Positions 2,709 to 16,383 of a stretch of 16,383 nucleotides of DNA are shown here, piece after piece (position 1 is the stretch's first letter; each line of letters starts with the position of its first letter). Origin of the DNA: a virus. Taxonomy: Duplodnaviria > Heunggongvirae > Uroviricota > Caudoviricetes. A program made the translations under genes and the position numbers. The stretch lies in the IMG/VR virus record IMGVR_UViG_2630968533_000009; one strand, given 5' to 3'. A model generated the notes under the pieces. It did not search any database, was not told where the DNA came from, and worked only from the letters and a program-made list of their open reading frames with translations.

Positions 2709-2902
2709 AATACATCTACAACGGCCCAGCAAGCGGCGTCACCCTTGCCGATGGACAAGAAATCTTATTGTGGCCGAACAGTGAAATTGATCTGCCAGAA
2801 GACAACGAGTGGGTCATGACCATGATTGCCCGCAATCATCTGACTCCTGTCATCACTCAGGAAGAACAAAATAACGTAGAGGAAATTGTACATGGCAGCT
2901 AA
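2705..2902 (+). CDS. Small tail-associated protein preceding the sheath (DUF2635-like)
   Basis: 65-aa ORF translationally coupled on both sides. A small conserved gene in this position is typical of Mu-like tail clusters. Confidence 0.4.
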   Translation: MKYIYNGPASGVTLADGQEILLWPNSEIDLPEDNEWVMTMIARNHLTPVITQEEQNNVEEIVHGS

Positions 2903-4316
2903 TTATCTGCACGGTGTAGAAACTATTGAAATTGAAACCGGCCCGCGTCCGGTTAAAGCGGTAAAATCCGCCGTCATCGCTTTAATCGGTACATCCCCCT
3001 GCGGTCCGGTAAATAAACCAACATTATGCCTTTCTGAAAGCGATGCTGCGCAGTTTGGCTCGACTCAGGCTAACTTTACGATCCCACAGGCACTGAAGGC
3101 AATTTATGACCACGGTGCCGGTACGGTGGTGGTGATTAACGTGCTGGATCCGGCAAAACATGGCTCCAACATCAGCAATGAGAGTATCACTTTTGATGCT
3201 AACAACCAGGCGAAGCTCGCTCACCGCAATGTGCGTAACGTGGTACTAAAGCCCTCTTCATCAAATTCATCAACCTTTAACACCGCAGCATTTAGCGTAG
3301 ATGAACAAACAGGCATAATTACCCGTAAAGGAGCCGACATTCCTCCTGGTGCGAAAGTTTGTGCCTATTATTCCTGGTGCGACCCTACAAAGGTCACCGC
3401 AGCCGATATTATCGGTACCGTAAATACCGCAGGCGACCGCACGGGGATGAAACTCCTTCAGGACACCTATAACCTGTACGGTTTCTACGCCAAAATCCTG
3501 CTTGCTCCTGTGTTTTGTACGCAAAAATCGGTGACTACTGAGCTGATTGCACAAGCGGAAAAACTCGGTGCGATTACCTACATTGATGCCCCGATTGGGA
3601 CAACATTCCAGCAGGTATTGGCTGGACGCGGTTCGCAAGGGGCTATCAACTTCAATACCAGCTCTGATCGTGCGCGTTTATGTTACCCACATGTCAAAGT
3701 TTACGATGGCATCACTAACCAGGAAATTCTTGAGCCTCTCTCTTCGCGTGCTGCCGGGCTGCGTGCCAAAGTAGACCTCGAAAAAGGTTTCTGGTGGAGC
3801 AACTCAAACCAGGAAATTCAGGGTATTACCGGTATTGAACGTTCGCTTTCCGCAATGATTGATGATCCACAAAGCGAAGTGAATCAGCTCAACGAAAACG
3901 GCATTACCACTATTTTCAATAGTTACGGCTCTGGTCTGCGCTTGTGGGGTAACCGCACAGCGGCATGGCCTACCGTGACCCATATGCGTAACTTTGAAAA
4001 CGTCCGCCGGACAGGCGATGTAATCAATGAGTCAATCCGTTATTTCAGTCAGCAGTATATTGATATGCCGATTAATCAGGCACTTATTGACGCGCTGACC
4101 GAATCGGTAAATACCTGGGGCCGAAAACTGATTGCCGACGGCGCACTGCTTGGCTTTGAGTGCTGGTACGATCCGGCACGAAATTCACCGGCTGAACTCA
4201 GCGCCGGGCATTTATTGCTGAGCTATAAATTCACCCCGCCACCGCCGCTGGAACGTCTGACGTTTGAAACTGAAATTACTTCTGAATATTTAGTCTCTCT
4301 GGAGAGCAATAGCTAA
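2892..4316 (+). CDS. Contractile tail sheath protein
   Basis: About 474 aa. N-terminus MAANYLHGVETIEIETGPRP resembles the P2 FI / Mu L sheath N-terminus. ATG 2892 with GAGGAA RBS preferred over the track's TTG at 2886. Confidence 0.9.
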   Translation: MAANYLHGVETIEIETGPRPVKAVKSAVIALIGTSPCGPVNKPTLCLSESDAAQFGSTQANFTIPQALKAIYDHGAGTVVVINVLDPAKHGSNISNESITFDANNQAKLAHRNVRNVVLKPSSSNSSTFNTAAFSVDEQTGIITRKGADIPPGAKVCAYYSWCDPTKVTAADIIGTVNTAGDRTGMKLLQDTYNLYGFYAKILLAPVFCTQKSVTTELIAQAEKLGAITYIDAPIGTTFQQVLAGRGSQGAINFNTSSDRARLCYPHVKVYDGITNQEILEPLSSRAAGLRAKVDLEKGFWWSNSNQEIQGITGIERSLSAMIDDPQSEVNQLNENGITTIFNSYGSGLRLWGNRTAAWPTVTHMRNFENVRRTGDVINESIRYFSQQYIDMPINQALIDALTESVNTWGRKLIADGALLGFECWYDPARNSPAELSAGHLLLSYKFTPPPPLERLTFETEITSEYLVSLESNS

Positions 4317-4840
4317 TGGCTGGAAAAATTCAAATTAACCGTATTACCAACGCCAATATTTATCTCGATGGTAATAACCTTTTAGGTCGTGCAACAGAAA
4401 TTAAATTGCCGGATGTAAGTTTAATTATGCAGGAGCATAAAGCACTGGGCATGGTGGGTAAAATCGAACTCCCGGCAGGTTTCGATAAACTGGAGGGCGA
4501 AATTAAATGGAACTCCTTCTATCAGGACGTAATGCGTAAAACGGCAAACCCGTGGCAGGCGGTTGCATTACAGTGCCGCTCCAGTATTGATTGCTATAAC
4601 TCCCAGGGGAAAGCGAATCAATTAGCGCTAGTGACACATTTAACCGTGATGTTTAAAAAGAATCCACTGGGCACATTTAAACAGAATGAAAACCCGGAAT
4701 TCAGCAGCGCCTTTGGTTGCACTTATATTAAACAAGTAGTTGATGGTGAAACGCTGCTTGAACTTGATTATATGGCCAATATTTTCCGGGTTAATGGTGT
4801 GGATCAATTAAGTACCTATCGCAATAACATCGGTGGCTAA
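4316..4840 (+). CDS. Tail tube protein
   Basis: 174-aa ORF immediately after the sheath, start overlapping the sheath stop (TAATG). Size and position match P2 FII / Mu M-type tube proteins. Confidence 0.8.
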   Translation: MAGKIQINRITNANIYLDGNNLLGRATEIKLPDVSLIMQEHKALGMVGKIELPAGFDKLEGEIKWNSFYQDVMRKTANPWQAVALQCRSSIDCYNSQGKANQLALVTHLTVMFKKNPLGTFKQNENPEFSSAFGCTYIKQVVDGETLLELDYMANIFRVNGVDQLSTYRNNIGG

Positions 4841-4844
4841 GTTA

Positions 4845-4864
4845 TTCGGGGCTACGGCCCCGAA
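4845..4864 (+). other. RNA hairpin after the tube gene (8-bp GC-rich stem, 4-nt loop)
   Basis: TTCGGGGC-tacg-GCCCCGAA is a perfect inverted repeat 5 nt after the tube stop, with no long T tract. Likely an mRNA-stabilising or partial-termination element. Confidence 0.5.
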
Positions 4865-4890
4865 CTTTGCAAAATAAATAAGGACACAAA

Positions 4891-5208
4891 ATGAAAGAAC
4901 ATTATATCTTGCAGTTTCCATTTACGTCGGCAGCAGGAAATAATATCGACACGCTGCAATTACGTCGCCTGAAAGTAAAAGATATGCGCAACGCCCGCCG
5001 GATCAGCGAAAAGCCAGAAGAGTGGGATGAACCGCTGATGGCGGCGATGACCGGACTGGTGCCAGAAGATTTAGCCGAAATGGATTTGCTGGATTACCAG
5101 GCATTGCAGAAACGATTTCAATCCATGCTTACCGTGGTTACAGAATCCTCCCCTGCTATGGCAGGCAATGGCGCTACTGGCGAGATGGTTTCGCTTTCCG
5201 CCCAGTGA
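4891..5208 (+). CDS. Tail assembly chaperone (gpE/gpG-like)
   Basis: 105-aa acidic ORF between tube and tape measure, the conserved chaperone position. AAGGA RBS. Confidence 0.5.
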   Translation: MKEHYILQFPFTSAAGNNIDTLQLRRLKVKDMRNARRISEKPEEWDEPLMAAMTGLVPEDLAEMDLLDYQALQKRFQSMLTVVTESSPAMAGNGATGEMVSLSAQ

Positions 5209-5282
5209 GATAGACGCCCTTACCGTCGATGACTTTAGCAACTGGCTGGATGAAGCCAGCGCCCAAATAAAAATCGAATATG

Positions 5283-5307
5283 ACTCGCAGACCTGATGTC
5301 TGCGAGT
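5283..5307 (+). other. Hairpin in the chaperone-tape measure spacer (10-bp stem, 5-nt loop)
   Basis: ACTCGCAGAC-ctgat-GTCTGCGAGT is a perfect inverted repeat. It covers the stop of the +1-frame extension of the chaperone. Confidence 0.5.
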
Positions 5308-5397
5308 TTCCCAAGCCCGTCAGGTTTATTTCTTCCCTGCCCCTTTTTTTAGAAAAATAACCAGCGGGCCATTATCAATATTTAAAGAGAAACAATT

Positions 5398-7773
5398 TTG
5401 GCCAACGATATTATTACCCAGCTTCAGGCGCGTAATGAGACGTTGACGCAGGCAATAGCCCGTTACGGCTCACTCAACGCCAGAACATTGTTAACTCTCT
5501 CTACTCAGCAGGCGACAGTTATCAAACTAACGCAGCAGCTTGCCGATTCCGCTCTCCGCCTGGAGGAAAATAGCCGCAGCCGCGCTAATCTGATGGAGAA
5601 AACCCAAACATTTGCCGGGCAATTTAGCAAAGTATTCAATGTTGAAGCCCCCGACTGGAAGTTGCCGTATGAGTTTCAGGACAACATGGTCAATATGGCG
5701 ACCAAAGGTGGGATGAATGCTACAACCCGCGAGACGCTCAGCCTTAATCTGCGCGACTGGAGCATGGATTTTAACCAGCAGCAGACCACCTTACAGAACG
5801 CAGCCCAAACGCTGATCGAAGGCAATTTGTCGTCGATGCAGGATCTCAACCGTTATATGCCGGAGATCGCCAAAGCTGCCACCGCCACGCGCGAAAGTGC
5901 TGAAACGTGGGCGAATGCCGCGCTCGCGACTCATGATCGACTGAATATTGCCCCGGAAAATTTCCACGCCGCGCAAAACATGATGTACGGCATTAGCAAA
6001 AGCGGTGGGCCTGCCATTGCTGAACAAACGCAGTGGATAGAGAAATTTGCAGGTAAAACCGGCGCTCAGGGTCTGGAAGGTATGGCTGAACTGACTGCCG
6101 CCATGCAGATCGCAATGAAAAATGGGGCCAGCGCCAGTGCGGCGGCGGAGAATTTTGACCACTTTCTGCAAACCACCTTTTCGAAAAAAACCGATAGCTG
6201 GTTCGCCAGCCAGGGCGTCGATCTGCAAGGCTCTCTGCTTGAACATCAGCAAAACGGTATGGGTGTTAGCGAAGCCATGACTCATATCGTACAAATGCAG
6301 CTTGAGAAGATGAACCCGGCGATCCTCGACACCTTCAAACGTACTATGCAGATTGAAGATTTATCTGCTCGCAGCAATGCGCTGCAATCGATGGTGTCGC
6401 AATTTAATCTGGGCGAAATGTTCGGCGATGTGCAAACGGTGGAATTCCTGGCACCTATGCTGGCGAATATGGAGGAATATCGCCAGTTAAAAGCCTCTGC
6501 CATGCAAGCCACCAGCAAGAATCTGATTAACGCTGACTTTTCTGCGCAAATGGCCTCGCCCATTGAACAGACTAAAGCGTTACAGCTGGCATTAAATGAT
6601 TTATGGCTCAGCATTGGTTTGCAGCTTATGCCGGCGATTGGCGAGCTGGCACAAAGCCTTACGACGGTTATTCGCCAGTTCAGCGCCTGGCTACGCGAAC
6701 ATCCGGCGCTGGTGCAAAACATTGCGAAAATCGTCGGGGCGGTTTGGCTGTTTAACGGCGCGCTGAATGTTTTAAAGCTGGGCGCGAACCTCATCACCTC
6801 GCCGTTTATTCGTCTGGTCGATATCTTCCTGAAAGTCAAGGCAAGTCTGGCGCTCACAGGCGGGGCAAGTAAGATGCTATCAGCGGTTAAGTCATTGGGT
6901 GGCGGCGCAAAATGGCTAATGCAACTGCTTGGTCGTGGCCTGATTGGCGCACTGAAACAGGTAGGTCAGACCGTCTTCTGGTTGGGTAGGGTTTTATTGA
7001 TGAATCCCATTGGTCTGGTCATCACTGCGATTGCGGGCGCTGCTTATCTGATTTGTCGCAACTGGGAGCCTATCTCCAGGTTCTTTTCGACCATCTGGCA
7101 ACGTATCACCACGGCCTTTGACGGCGGCATTGCAGGAATTTGTCGGTTGATTCTCGACTGGTCACCGCTGGAGTTGTTCTATAGCGCCTTTTCCAGTGTG
7201 ATGAATTGGTTTGGTGTCGAGATGCCTGCAAGTTTTAGCGAGTTCGGCAGCAATCTTCTGGGCAGTCTGGTTGACGGCATAATGAATGCCTTCCCCGCTC
7301 TGAAAGGCATTATTGATCAGGTAAAAAACGCCATCCCAGACTGGCTAAAAACCACGATGGGTATTAGTACAGAAGGATCGGCTACAGCTATTACAAGCAC
7401 GACTAATACCGCATCCGTCTCCCCCGCGACCGTTGTTCCAGGCGTTGCCGGTGCGATTTTAACACCGCCGGTGGGCAAACAACTCGCGCCATCCGGCAAA
7501 ACGGCTACGCCGTCATCGGCGCCAGCGGCAAAAAATACAGCCGCCAAACCCGTATCTGCCTCTTTACCTGGTAAATCCGTAACCAAACCGGCGACGCTAC
7601 CCTCCCGTTCCTCAGGAAAAGTCCAGGTAAATTTTTCGCCACAAATTACCGTGCAGGGTAACGGACAAAACACCACTAAAGAGATTCAGAACGTGTTGAC
7701 GATGAGTAAACGCGAACTGGAAAGAATGATTAACGATGTAATGGCGCAGCAGCAGCGCCGGGGGTATGCCTGA
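5398..7773 (+). CDS. Tail tape measure protein
   Basis: 791 aa: helical N-terminal region, long central hydrophobic/Gly-rich section, Ser/Thr/Pro/Ala-rich C-terminal segment. Start appears to be TTG at 5398 (no in-frame ATG before an upstream TAA), so the start is less certain than the call. Confidence 0.85.
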   Translation: MANDIITQLQARNETLTQAIARYGSLNARTLLTLSTQQATVIKLTQQLADSALRLEENSRSRANLMEKTQTFAGQFSKVFNVEAPDWKLPYEFQDNMVNMATKGGMNATTRETLSLNLRDWSMDFNQQQTTLQNAAQTLIEGNLSSMQDLNRYMPEIAKAATATRESAETWANAALATHDRLNIAPENFHAAQNMMYGISKSGGPAIAEQTQWIEKFAGKTGAQGLEGMAELTAAMQIAMKNGASASAAAENFDHFLQTTFSKKTDSWFASQGVDLQGSLLEHQQNGMGVSEAMTHIVQMQLEKMNPAILDTFKRTMQIEDLSARSNALQSMVSQFNLGEMFGDVQTVEFLAPMLANMEEYRQLKASAMQATSKNLINADFSAQMASPIEQTKALQLALNDLWLSIGLQLMPAIGELAQSLTTVIRQFSAWLREHPALVQNIAKIVGAVWLFNGALNVLKLGANLITSPFIRLVDIFLKVKASLALTGGASKMLSAVKSLGGGAKWLMQLLGRGLIGALKQVGQTVFWLGRVLLMNPIGLVITAIAGAAYLICRNWEPISRFFSTIWQRITTAFDGGIAGICRLILDWSPLELFYSAFSSVMNWFGVEMPASFSEFGSNLLGSLVDGIMNAFPALKGIIDQVKNAIPDWLKTTMGISTEGSATAITSTTNTASVSPATVVPGVAGAILTPPVGKQLAPSGKTATPSSAPAAKNTAAKPVSASLPGKSVTKPATLPSRSSGKVQVNFSPQITVQGNGQNTTKEIQNVLTMSKRELERMINDVMAQQQRRGYA

Positions 7774-8726
7774 TGTATGCCGTTTTAGGAGAGATTGAAT
7801 TTAAGGTTGTCACATTCTGGGACGGCTTTAAAAGCACAATGGGCGTGGATTACGCCACACATGCCCGTATAGAAGGCAAACCCGGCGTGCAGTTTATTGG
7901 CGATAAGCTGGATATGCTGGCGCTGGAATTTTCCCTGCACAGCCAGTTTTGCCAGCCCACAACAGAGCTGAACCGACTGCGTGAAGCCATGCTTGCTCAC
8001 AAGGCGATGGCACTGGTATTTGGCAATGGCGATTATCGCGGCTGGTTTGTGATTACGGAGCTAACCGCCACCCACCAGCACACCGATCCCTGGGGCAATG
8101 TGATTGCCCAAAACGGAACGATGTCGCTCCAGGAGTACACCGGCGATCCTAAAAATCCACTTTTACCTCCGGCGATTACCACCCAGGAGCCCAACATCGA
8201 GGAAAAGGCGAGCGATTTTCCCGACAAGGTGGAGTCCTGGTTTGATCAGATATTAAACGCCATCGAAGAAGGTATGCGTAAGGCCAAAGAGATGCTGGAT
8301 GAACTGACACAAGCCATTGAAGATATTAAAAAAACGGTGGCAAAAGTGAAAGCAATGATTAAAGAGGCCAAAGCGTTAAAAGAAAAGTGTGAAAAGATAA
8401 TTACGTCATTGAAAAAGACAATCGACGCCATCGAAACCCTGTTTAAACAGCCAATGGATCTGCAAACGCTGGCAGGACTCCCAAAAGCGTTGTCGGCGCA
8501 GATTAAAACTTTACTGGGTAACATGCCAGGTATCCGGGACTGCGCCAATGACGCCAGTACACTGGTTGACCATGCTCAGGCGCTTTTCGACGACATTACC
8601 AGCGACATCGCCGAAGCGACGTTTGATAAAGCCGCAACGTTGGTTGATCAGGCACGAACAACGGTACAACAAACCACTCCCACAGTGAGCCAGCTTGCTG
8701 CCGCGACCATTACGAGGATCTGGTGA
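7773..8726 (+). CDS. gpU-like tail protein with a long C-terminal coiled-coil extension
   Basis: N-terminal ~130 aa (MYAVLGEIEFKV ... DY ... FIG ... LALEF ... GWFVITE) follows the pattern I recall for P2 gpU. The C-terminal ~185 aa are Lys/Glu/Ala-rich and heptad-like. Start overlaps the tape measure stop (ATGA). Confidence 0.6.
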   Translation: MYAVLGEIEFKVVTFWDGFKSTMGVDYATHARIEGKPGVQFIGDKLDMLALEFSLHSQFCQPTTELNRLREAMLAHKAMALVFGNGDYRGWFVITELTATHQHTDPWGNVIAQNGTMSLQEYTGDPKNPLLPPAITTQEPNIEEKASDFPDKVESWFDQILNAIEEGMRKAKEMLDELTQAIEDIKKTVAKVKAMIKEAKALKEKCEKIITSLKKTIDAIETLFKQPMDLQTLAGLPKALSAQIKTLLGNMPGIRDCANDASTLVDHAQALFDDITSDIAEATFDKAATLVDQARTTVQQTTPTVSQLAAATITRIW

Positions 8727-15583: not shown

Positions 15584-15602
15584 GCCGGGCTTTATGCCCG
15601 GC
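15584..15602. terminator. GC-rich hairpin between convergent genes (possible bidirectional terminator)
   Basis: GCCGGGC-tttat-GCCCGGC, 7-bp all-GC stem, 6 nt after the 15578 stop and overlapping the stop of the minus-strand gene. Confidence 0.5.
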
Positions 15603-16383
15603 ACATTACCGTTTGATACAGCAAATTATCTAGCTCCCGAACATCTCCATCTCGACTGTCCGGTAAAATCGGTGGAATTTCCCCGCGCGCCAGTTCCGCG
15701 CGAATAAACGCATGCAATAAAGGACGGCGCAGTCCATATTCCGCTTCACTCGCACGCTGTTTACGCTCCAGCAATTCATCTATTTCTGCGCGTAAGGCCG
15801 CATCCAACTCACTTCCCGCCAGTAACTCGGCAAAGCGCATTGGCGGCACGCCTTTTCCCGCTTCAACCCAGCGTACGGCCAGCAGCGGGCGCAGCACGTA
15901 AAAGTATTTTTTCAGTCGAACTTCGTCGCCCTGTAAATAACCGCGAAAGTTTTTCTGCGCCATCGAATAGTAATGCCAACGCGCGCGCAACGAAGAAAAC
16001 CACATTGGGACCATTGCCTTAAGCGCCGTTATCGTTTCTTCATCTTGTTGATAGACCACCGGAGAATCCAGCCATTCTATCAGCGTCGGATTCGCGCCTT
16101 TCAATAATCCCAGCGCCTTACGCCACTCCCAACCGGAAACATCTAACTCGTCGTCGATAGGCAGTTCGATAACATCGCGCGGTGACTCTACACGCAGATA
16201 CCATTCTAGCGGATGGACATACAAAAACCGTACATCGTAGTCGCTATCGGGCGAGGCAAATCCCCAGCCGCGGCTGCCTGATTCACAGGCGTACAGCACT
16301 TTCACGCCATAGCGACGTTCTATTTCTTTTAACTGCTGCGATACCCGTTCGCGCATCGCAGCACTGACTCCATTTAATGGCAT
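15592..16383 (-). CDS. Nucleotidyltransferase (Pol-beta superfamily), probably outside the tail locus
   Basis: N-terminal ESGSRGWGFASPDSDYDVRF matches the GS-x(n)-D-x-D nucleotidyltransferase signature. ATG lies exactly at the window end (16381..16383), so the true start may be upstream. Convergent with the tail operon. Confidence 0.6.
   Translation of the reverse strand: MPLNGVSAAMRERVSQQLKEIERRYGVKVLYACESGSRGWGFASPDSDYDVRFLYVHPLEWYLRVESPRDVIELPIDDELDVSGWEWRKALGLLKGANPTLIEWLDSPVVYQQDEETITALKAMVPMWFSSLRARWHYYSMAQKNFRGYLQGDEVRLKKYFYVLRPLLAVRWVEAGKGVPPMRFAELLAGSELDAALRAEIDELLERKQRASEAEYGLRRPLLHAFIRAELARGEIPPILPDSRDGDVRELDNLLYQTVMCRA

Follow-up and report, generated by a model that had tools for sequence, protein, structure and literature searches.

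A predicted +1 frameshift site, CGA_UUU_C, in the gene for the tail assembly chaperone of a P2/BcepMu-type tail module

Does the gene for the tail assembly chaperone in the element studied here encode one protein or two, and if two, at which codon would ribosomes change frame? The DNA analyzed, referred to as the window, is a stretch of 16,383 nucleotides from a virus of the Caudoviricetes (IMG/VR record IMGVR_UViG_2630968533_000009), and the chaperone gene, here called E, lies on its + strand. Since -1, -2 and +1 shifts have each been recorded for tail chaperone genes (PMC5009743), the phenomenon itself is not new. From the comparison of the window with related loci we conclude that a longer chaperone is most likely made by programmed +1 frameshifting at CGA_UUU_C and that the locus is a counterpart of the P2/BcepMu-type pair E and E+E', in which E' denotes the part encoded in the second frame.

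Reading frames and coding in frame +1

Frame 0 of the chaperone gene (4891..5208, + strand) encodes 105 aa and ends at TGA 5206-5208. Residues 6-80 matched Pfam PF10109 (Phage_TAC_7) with E=1.9e-19 and a score of 69.9 bits against a cut-off of 25, and RefSeq names the product 'phage tail assembly protein'. This short product is presumably the abundant one. Translation of the other frames agreed with the preliminary description, which was made from the sequence of the window: the -1 frame is shut by TAG 5211-5213, one codon past the stop of E, and the +1 frame, open from 5075, runs to TGA 5294-5296, ending in ARWFRFPPSEIDALTVDDFSNWLDEASAQIKIEYDSQT before the stop. That description had about 29 residues merely appended after the normal stop. 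Instead, with the shift proposed below, the last 29 residues of E would be replaced by 58 residues read in frame +1.

By our own estimate an open +1 frame of 74 codons has a probability of about (61/64)^74 = 0.03, which by itself is mildly unusual, and a perfect 10-bp hairpin with a loop of 3-8 nt, such as the one that covers the stop of this frame, is expected about 0.09 times per 16 kb. Both the frame and the hairpin were judged real because they are conserved, the +1 protein in more than 100 loci and the stem with 98.8% pairing in 16 diverged sequences.

Related loci were collected by alignment of chaperone homologues, 24 from contigs of a one-genome-per-species set and 79 from viral contigs, giving 104 loci with the window (designated by L numbers). 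The frame of E' was assigned with a small hidden Markov model of E' peptides, and codon statistics were calculated on 41 representatives less than 95% identical to each other. Conservation among homologous loci had been named in the preliminary description as a check on the +1 frame, and the frame withstood it: 102 of the 104 loci have E' in frame +1 with respect to the chaperone. These were found in Escherichia, Salmonella-like and Enterobacter-like bacteria, Superficieibacter, Phytobacter, Lelliottia, Pectobacterium, Samsonia, Symbiopectobacterium, Arsenophonus and Conchiformibius. The same +1 arrangement is present in the phages BcepMu, E. coli phage PhiKM, Ralstonia YO107_2, Pseudomonas Komp_PAO1_1 and Bise, and Burkholderia vB_HM795. 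The two exceptions are L019, a degraded copy from Erwinia tracheiphila in which an indel has fused the frames, and L106, a distant relative (33% identity) with the domain in frame -1 and a P2-like GGT_TTT_TTG. Pasteurella phage AFS-2018a and P2 are likewise -1 types.

The E' segment (5120..5296, + strand) comprises 58 codons followed by TGA 5294-5296, as delimited by translation, selection analysis and the alignment of the 41 representatives, and its predicted peptide is NPCLPWLQNPPLLWQAMALLARWFRFPPSEIDALTVDDFSNWLDEASAQIKIEYDSQT. Within it the +1 peptide MALLARWFRFPPSEIDALTVDDFSNWLDEASAQIK matched Pfam PF06528 (Phage_P2_GpE, the E' part of P2 E+E') with E=6.7e-4, over profile positions 1-35 of 37 and window positions 5168..5272. 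The same family was matched by 8 of 16 diverse homologous +1 peptides (best E=4.8e-10), and a profile of the homologous +1 peptides aligned with P2 E' in hhalign with a probability of 93.9% and E=1.6e-7. The 41 representatives share the +1-frame consensus x-x-x-L-x-W-(L/I/V)-x-x-P-x-x-L-W-Q-A-x-A-L-L-A-R-W-F-R-F-x-P-S-E-I-D. Judged by these comparisons, which demonstrate both the arrangement of the frames and the homology of the domain, the +1 frame is real coding sequence and a homologue of P2 E'.

The +1 reading extends upstream of any start codon that could serve it. A tryptophan codon TGG at 5135..5137 (+ strand), 5' of any start in that frame, is invariant (T, G and G each 40/40 representatives), and the 0-frame residues overlapping it vary (V/M/L, then V/A/G/D). 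No ATG, GTG or TTG occurs in frame +1 from 5075 to 5168. The ATG at 5168 is present in about 20 of the 41 representatives, and its place is taken by CAG in Pectobacterium and by GAG or AAA in others. A tail chaperone frameshift pair is expected to have its T/E' domain in an overlapping second frame that lacks a conserved start, as here.

The candidate shift site

The proposed site, CGA_UUU_C (5113..5119, + strand), consists of the Arg75 codon CGA, the Phe76 codon UUU (5116-5118) and C5119, and was identified by codon conservation, by the position of stop codons in relatives and by a switch in selection. An in-frame TTT followed by C at the Phe76 codon was the only shift-prone motif common to the +1-type loci. 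It was present in 106/106 of them, that is, all 102 of the first set and four further phages. The Phe76 codon was TTT in 41/41 representatives, and the ratios of TTT to TTC in the other five conserved Phe columns were 14/14, 17/10, 31/9, 29/4 and 24/13. The preceding Arg codon was CGA in 37/38 sequences, compared with 0/26 and 2/41 in two other conserved Arg columns of E. The base after TTT was always C, although the 0-frame residue that it begins varies (Gln, Arg or Leu). Positions 5116-5119 are UUU followed by a pyrimidine with conserved +1 coding beyond, the pattern by which UUU_Y +1 sites are recognized.

Stop codons in the relatives bracket the same place. The +1 frame opens just 8 nt before TTT in seven loci, and a 0-frame stop follows TTT after 21 nt in L105, 27 nt in L055/56/102 and 30 nt in L112; the site is therefore confined to -8 to +21 nt around UUU. 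The ratio of nonsynonymous to synonymous changes (pN/pS) pointed to this interval as well. In the body of E (4891-5118) it was 0.42 in frame 0 and 1.06 in frame +1. The values for frames 0 and +1, respectively, were 1.18 and 0.60 at 5120-5167, 1.62 and 0.35 at 5168-5206, and 1.4 and 0.34 in the third and last stretch of the E' segment. In consecutive 8-codon blocks from 5095, pN/pS was 0.35, 0.95, 1.4 and 2.45 in frame 0 and 0.62, 0.65, 0.56 and 0.29 in frame +1. Purifying selection passes from frame 0 to frame +1 at 5119. Beyond the site, frame 0 runs for 6 to about 30 codons among L020-L025, L026, L055/56/102, L062, L105 and L112, with a pN/pS of at least 1 and no purifying selection. Since this 0-frame tail varies in length and is not under purifying selection, the C-terminal 29 residues of the window's E seem dispensable. 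The alignments demonstrate the nucleotide conservation of CGA_UUU_C and the switch in selection at it, from which we infer that ribosomes shift there.

Several observations weigh against this reading. No Shine-Dalgarno-like run was found upstream of the site, where third codon positions vary freely. The next codon is neither a stop nor rare (CAA in the window; CAA/CAG, CGC/CGG/CGA or CUG/CUU in relatives, with only the first C constant). The local RNA fold at 5095-5215 was not significant (z = -0.77). With 19.5 bits, the PF06528 match of the window itself stays under the Pfam cut-off of 23, and the compared sequences share a phylogeny, so that the counts given above are not independent events. 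Moreover, the synonymous conservation of CGA and UUU could stem from dual coding if the shift took place a few codons upstream. Against such an upstream shift, the residue that precedes Phe in frame +1 is variable (D, C, P, R or H) and the 8 nt available hold no slippery sequence. A search of Rfam gave no match in 4850-5450. As no usual stimulator was found, the efficiency of the shift may be low. A slowly decoded 0-frame codon in the A site, such as CGU in PA-X, is not required in bacteria according to the literature on UUU_Y sites.

Three other classes of recoding signal were also compared with the overlap. For canonical -1 programmed ribosomal frameshifting no X_XXY_YYZ heptamer is present within 5075-5208, the -1 frame is shut and the E' domain lies in +1. 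The overlap contains no G-run of the Mu type (CGG_GGG_CGA), for a -2 shift, and the C-run specific to the window is not conserved. A +1 site of the prfB type (CUU_UGA with a Shine-Dalgarno-like element) was not found either: after CUU 5194 comes UCC, a Shine-Dalgarno-like run is lacking and relatives do not conserve the motif.

Predicted products and rival explanations

Under the proposed scheme, most ribosomes would translate frame 0 to TGA 5206 and release the 105-aa E. In a minority, peptidyl-tRNA-Phe on UUU (5116-5118) would re-pair one base forward on UUC (5117-5119), decoding would resume at AAU (5120) and continue to TGA 5294, and the predicted product would be a 134-aa E+E' composed of E residues 1-76 and the 58 new residues. 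The predicted tryptic junction peptide of a +1 shift at UUU_C is FNPCLPWLQNPPLLWQAMALLAR. Slippage in the P site is the most economical reading, as the anticodon GAA would exchange a G:U wobble on UUU for a G:C pair on UUC. Alternatively, the same product would result from out-of-frame binding of Phe-tRNA to UUC in the A site with CGA in the P site. CGA is a rare codon that is decoded via I:A wobble, and it may weaken the E-site or P-site interaction and in this way favor the shift. As for function, we infer by analogy with lambda gpG/gpGT and P2 E/E+E' that the common part would coat the tape measure protein and that the E' domain would recruit the tube protein or link the coated tape measure to tube polymerization (PMC5009743, PMC3091744).

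The +1 frame might instead be expressed as a small gene of its own, giving a 42-aa 'GpE family' peptide that starts at ATG 5168 and acts in trans without recoding. An open reading frame starting with this ATG (5168-5296) does exist and by itself matches PF06528, and the annotators of BcepMu took the +1 frame as an independent gene, gp42, proposing slippage further downstream at gp42/gp43 (L107, NC_005882, 1510-2271). However, the ATG is shared by only about half of the representatives and no alternative start is conserved; an AGG stands just 2-4 nt before it, a poor spacing for a ribosome binding site; purifying selection acts on frame +1 from 5120, 5' of this ATG, including the invariant Trp; and the homologous domain in P2 is made solely as the E+E' fusion (PMC3091744). 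We consider a separate gene unlikely. In BcepMu the GpE-like domain lies in frame +1 of gp41 behind UCC_UUU_CGC, and the published annotation is probably mis-assigned. Equally, the frame might change elsewhere in the overlap, either by +1 at the CUU_U of 5194-5197, which the preliminary description had put forward, or by a -2 slip of tRNA-Pro from CCU (5152-5154) to CCC (5150-5152) in the C-run UCC_CCU (5149-5154), our own first guess from the precedent of Mu, which uses a -2 shift. Both motifs are in frame in the window, and in the database proteins P0001 and P0002 the fusion lies around the C-run, but neither motif is conserved. The C-run is specific to the window lineage, most relatives having GCA_GCA_GCU for UCC_CCU (the variant P0011 has CUU), and several relatives stop frame 0 earlier. 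At 5194, within the conserved +1 'RWFRFPPSE' coding, GTT is found in several relatives (L098, L101 and L109). About 25 conserved +1 codons precede CUU_U, among them Trp 5135-5137 and those that begin the GpE-like domain at 5168, and frame 0 is closed upstream of it in L026 and L062, upstream of both motifs in L055/56/102, L105 and L112, and upstream of 5194, near or at the position of the C-run, in L020-25. Selection already favors frame +1 from 5120. A shift at either place is very unlikely; +1 recoding, one of three options raised in the preliminary description beside an unrelated overlapping open reading frame and nothing at all, was strongly supported by the comparative evidence, but CUU_U as its site was not, nor was a part for the hairpin in it.

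Finally, there may be no second translation product at all, with the +1 open reading frame left over from a former -1-type E' and decaying, or the frame may change at the RNA level through transcriptional slippage. The element looks like a head-less prophage remnant or a tailocin, and RefSeq annotates nothing in the +1 frame. Against this, the +1 frame of many genera, and that of plaque-forming phages, is intact with a pN/pS of about 0.35, the exceptions being only the degraded L019 and the -1-type L106. Transcriptional slippage needs long homopolymers, and the T3 run of the site is far too short for the known cases. Both variants are extremely improbable.

Five database proteins (P0001-P0004 and P0040), all single-member clusters, have E and E' fused in frame. 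Their junctions look like indels, in P0001-P0004 within single assemblies, P0001 corresponding to the loss of one C from the CCCC run at 5150-5153, and they were not used as evidence. By the look of these junctions, the in-frame fusions, including that of L019, are sequencing errors or inactivating mutations and not natural fused genes.

Comparison with known recoding systems

The P2 E/E+E' pair resembles the window most closely. It likewise lies between the tube and tape measure genes and combines a PF10109 chaperone with a homologous PF06528 extension. Judged by eye from the local residue pattern, the shift codon is apparently the same Phe, in GGT_TTT_TTG ('GFL') of P2 and CGA_TTT_CAA ('RFQ') of the window. 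By the same by-eye correspondence, distant +1 types carry CGA_TTT_CTG and L106 carries GGT_TTT_TTG, apparently on this Phe. From the shift to the 'F.WPPSE' motif the two have similar distances (25 vs 23 residues). In contrast, P2 shifts by -1 at T_TTT_TTG (FETUD operon), and the window, with its -1 frame shut and no heptamer, would shift by +1. P2 E' overlaps the T gene, whereas the E' of the window ends 101 nt before the tape measure gene, and the E of the window keeps a long unconstrained 0-frame tail of 29 aa past the site.

The mechanism itself is closest to the UUU_Y sites, which include UUU_Ynn in E. coli, the apparent or proposed YopN-TyeA site of Yersinia and UCC_UUU_CGU of influenza A PA-X, where the 5' codon affects efficiency. 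At these sites P-site tRNA-Phe can move from UUU to UUC and neither a stop codon nor a strong stimulator is needed. BcepMu, with UCC_UUU_CGC, and vB_HM795, with UCC_UUU_CGA, resemble PA-X in having UCC_UUU_CGN. The window differs in its 5' codon (CGA), its 3' codon (CAA) and its product, a tail chaperone, and in that its shift is deduced by comparison. Mu gp41 is also a tail chaperone with an extension in the frame reached by +1 or -2, and the window has Mu-like neighbors (Mor, Gp37). However, Mu shifts by -2 at a G-run (CGG_GGG_CGA) at the very end of a 144-aa protein, and its extension does not resemble a GpE-type peptide by eye. The lambda gpG/gpGT pair shares the principle of two proteins with identical N-termini in a set ratio, encoded between the major tail and tape measure genes (PMC5009743), but has no detectable sequence similarity and shifts by -1 at G_GGA_AAG. 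The authors of the genome of the Mu-like phage KS10, which is outside the loci compared here, reported no frameshift site (PMC2628397). A literature search of incomplete coverage brought up no paper that describes a +1 site of the UUU_C kind in P2/BcepMu-type chaperones.

It is possible, and we advance it only tentatively, that CGA_UUU_C is an unrecognized, stimulator-poor +1 signal in E. coli, used clade-wide in BcepMu/carotovoricin-type modules, which apparently sits on the Phe codon of the P2 -1 site with its direction flipped in place and has CGA (UCC in the Burkholderia phages) as a 5' enhancer. If true, an essential recoding event has had its direction reversed during evolution without a change of place. 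The site would be a natural, conserved bacterial +1 site without a stop codon or obvious stimulator in a genetically tractable host, with a built-in comparison in the -1 site of P2 on apparently the same codon, and the proposed role of the 5' codon (CGA or UCC) can be tested directly by synonymous mutation. There is also a gap in annotation. In the E. coli genome examined, RefSeq has just the 318-nt gene for the 105-aa 'phage tail assembly protein' and leaves the +1 frame unannotated, and the locus is present in 199 complete E. coli genomes. The combination of a PF10109 gene, an in-frame UUU_C and PF06528 in frame +1 would serve as a rule to recover missing E+E' proteins. For the engineering of tailocins and phages, synonymous recoding of the chaperone gene would silently destroy the second chaperone.

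The intercistronic hairpin, neighboring genes and hosts

The hairpin at 5283..5307 (+ strand) is a perfect 10-bp stem-loop in which ACTCGCAGAC (5283-5292) is fully complementary to GTCTGCGAGT (5298-5307), as previously described, and the loop CTGAT holds the TGA stop of E'. It is specific to a sub-clade. The stem is conserved in the Escherichia/Salmonella/Enterobacter/Superficieibacter/Phytobacter group, where the 16 sequences compared showed one compensatory pair (G:C to A:U) and several G:C/G:U changes. Pectobacterium, Lelliottia, Symbiopectobacterium and BcepMu-like loci have no equivalent stem, and some of them have unrelated stems after the E' stop. Because the hairpin stands some 165 nt 3' of the shift site and most +1-type relatives lack it, it was rejected as a frameshift stimulator and is not part of the recoding signal. 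A rho-independent terminator was also rejected, as the stem is followed by TTTCCCAAG and not by a U-tract, and a scan of 4800-5500 gave no terminator-like site. With low confidence, this lineage-specific intercistronic stem-loop may protect the 3' end of a sheath-tube-chaperone mRNA or cause partial attenuation into the tape measure gene. The E' stop and the TTG at which the tape measure gene starts are separated by 101 nt of non-coding DNA, in which there is another weak stem at about 5320-5334 and a C4T7 run at 5341-5351.

Gene order and Pfam matches identified a myovirus tail module on the + strand of the window. The sheath gene (2886-4316, + strand) is followed by a tail tube gene of the P2 FII type (4316..4840, + strand; Pfam PF04985, E=3.7e-56; RefSeq 'phage major tail tube protein') directly 5' of the PF10109 chaperone gene. 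The tape measure gene, whose product is the client of the chaperone, is its 3' neighbor (5398..7773, + strand; Pfam PF10145, E=4e-11; the RefSeq start matches window 5398). The chaperone gene thus stands between tube and tape measure as in frameshift pairs. Homologues of gpU, X, D, V, W, J and I, and then tail fiber and fiber assembly genes, follow 3' of the tape measure gene. The Mor activator, holin/lysis genes and a Gp37-family gene lie 5' of the tail module.

The DNA of the locus was present in 199 of 5426 complete E. coli genomes, on the chromosome in every case. In an annotated example (L001, NZ_CP033850.1) the tail cluster adjoins lysC and is without head genes. The element looks like a tailocin or defective prophage and not a full phage. 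Viral contigs related to the window are only about 14-17 kb long, and many come from Pectobacterium. In E. coli FDAARGOS_497 (L001 7083-10622, equivalent to the window from about 5398 onward) the tape measure gene has been cut short by an ISEcp1 with blaCTX-M-15, and in strain LR-62-2 an IS903B lies within the same region. The gpU homologue (window 7773-8726) has 317 aa, with the GpU domain at residues 6-123; the other approximately 190 residues, which gave many weak Pfam matches of the coiled-coil type, make its extension unusually long for a tail terminator protein. Outside the tail module, at the window's right end, an open reading frame of 263 aa lies on the - strand (15592-16383).

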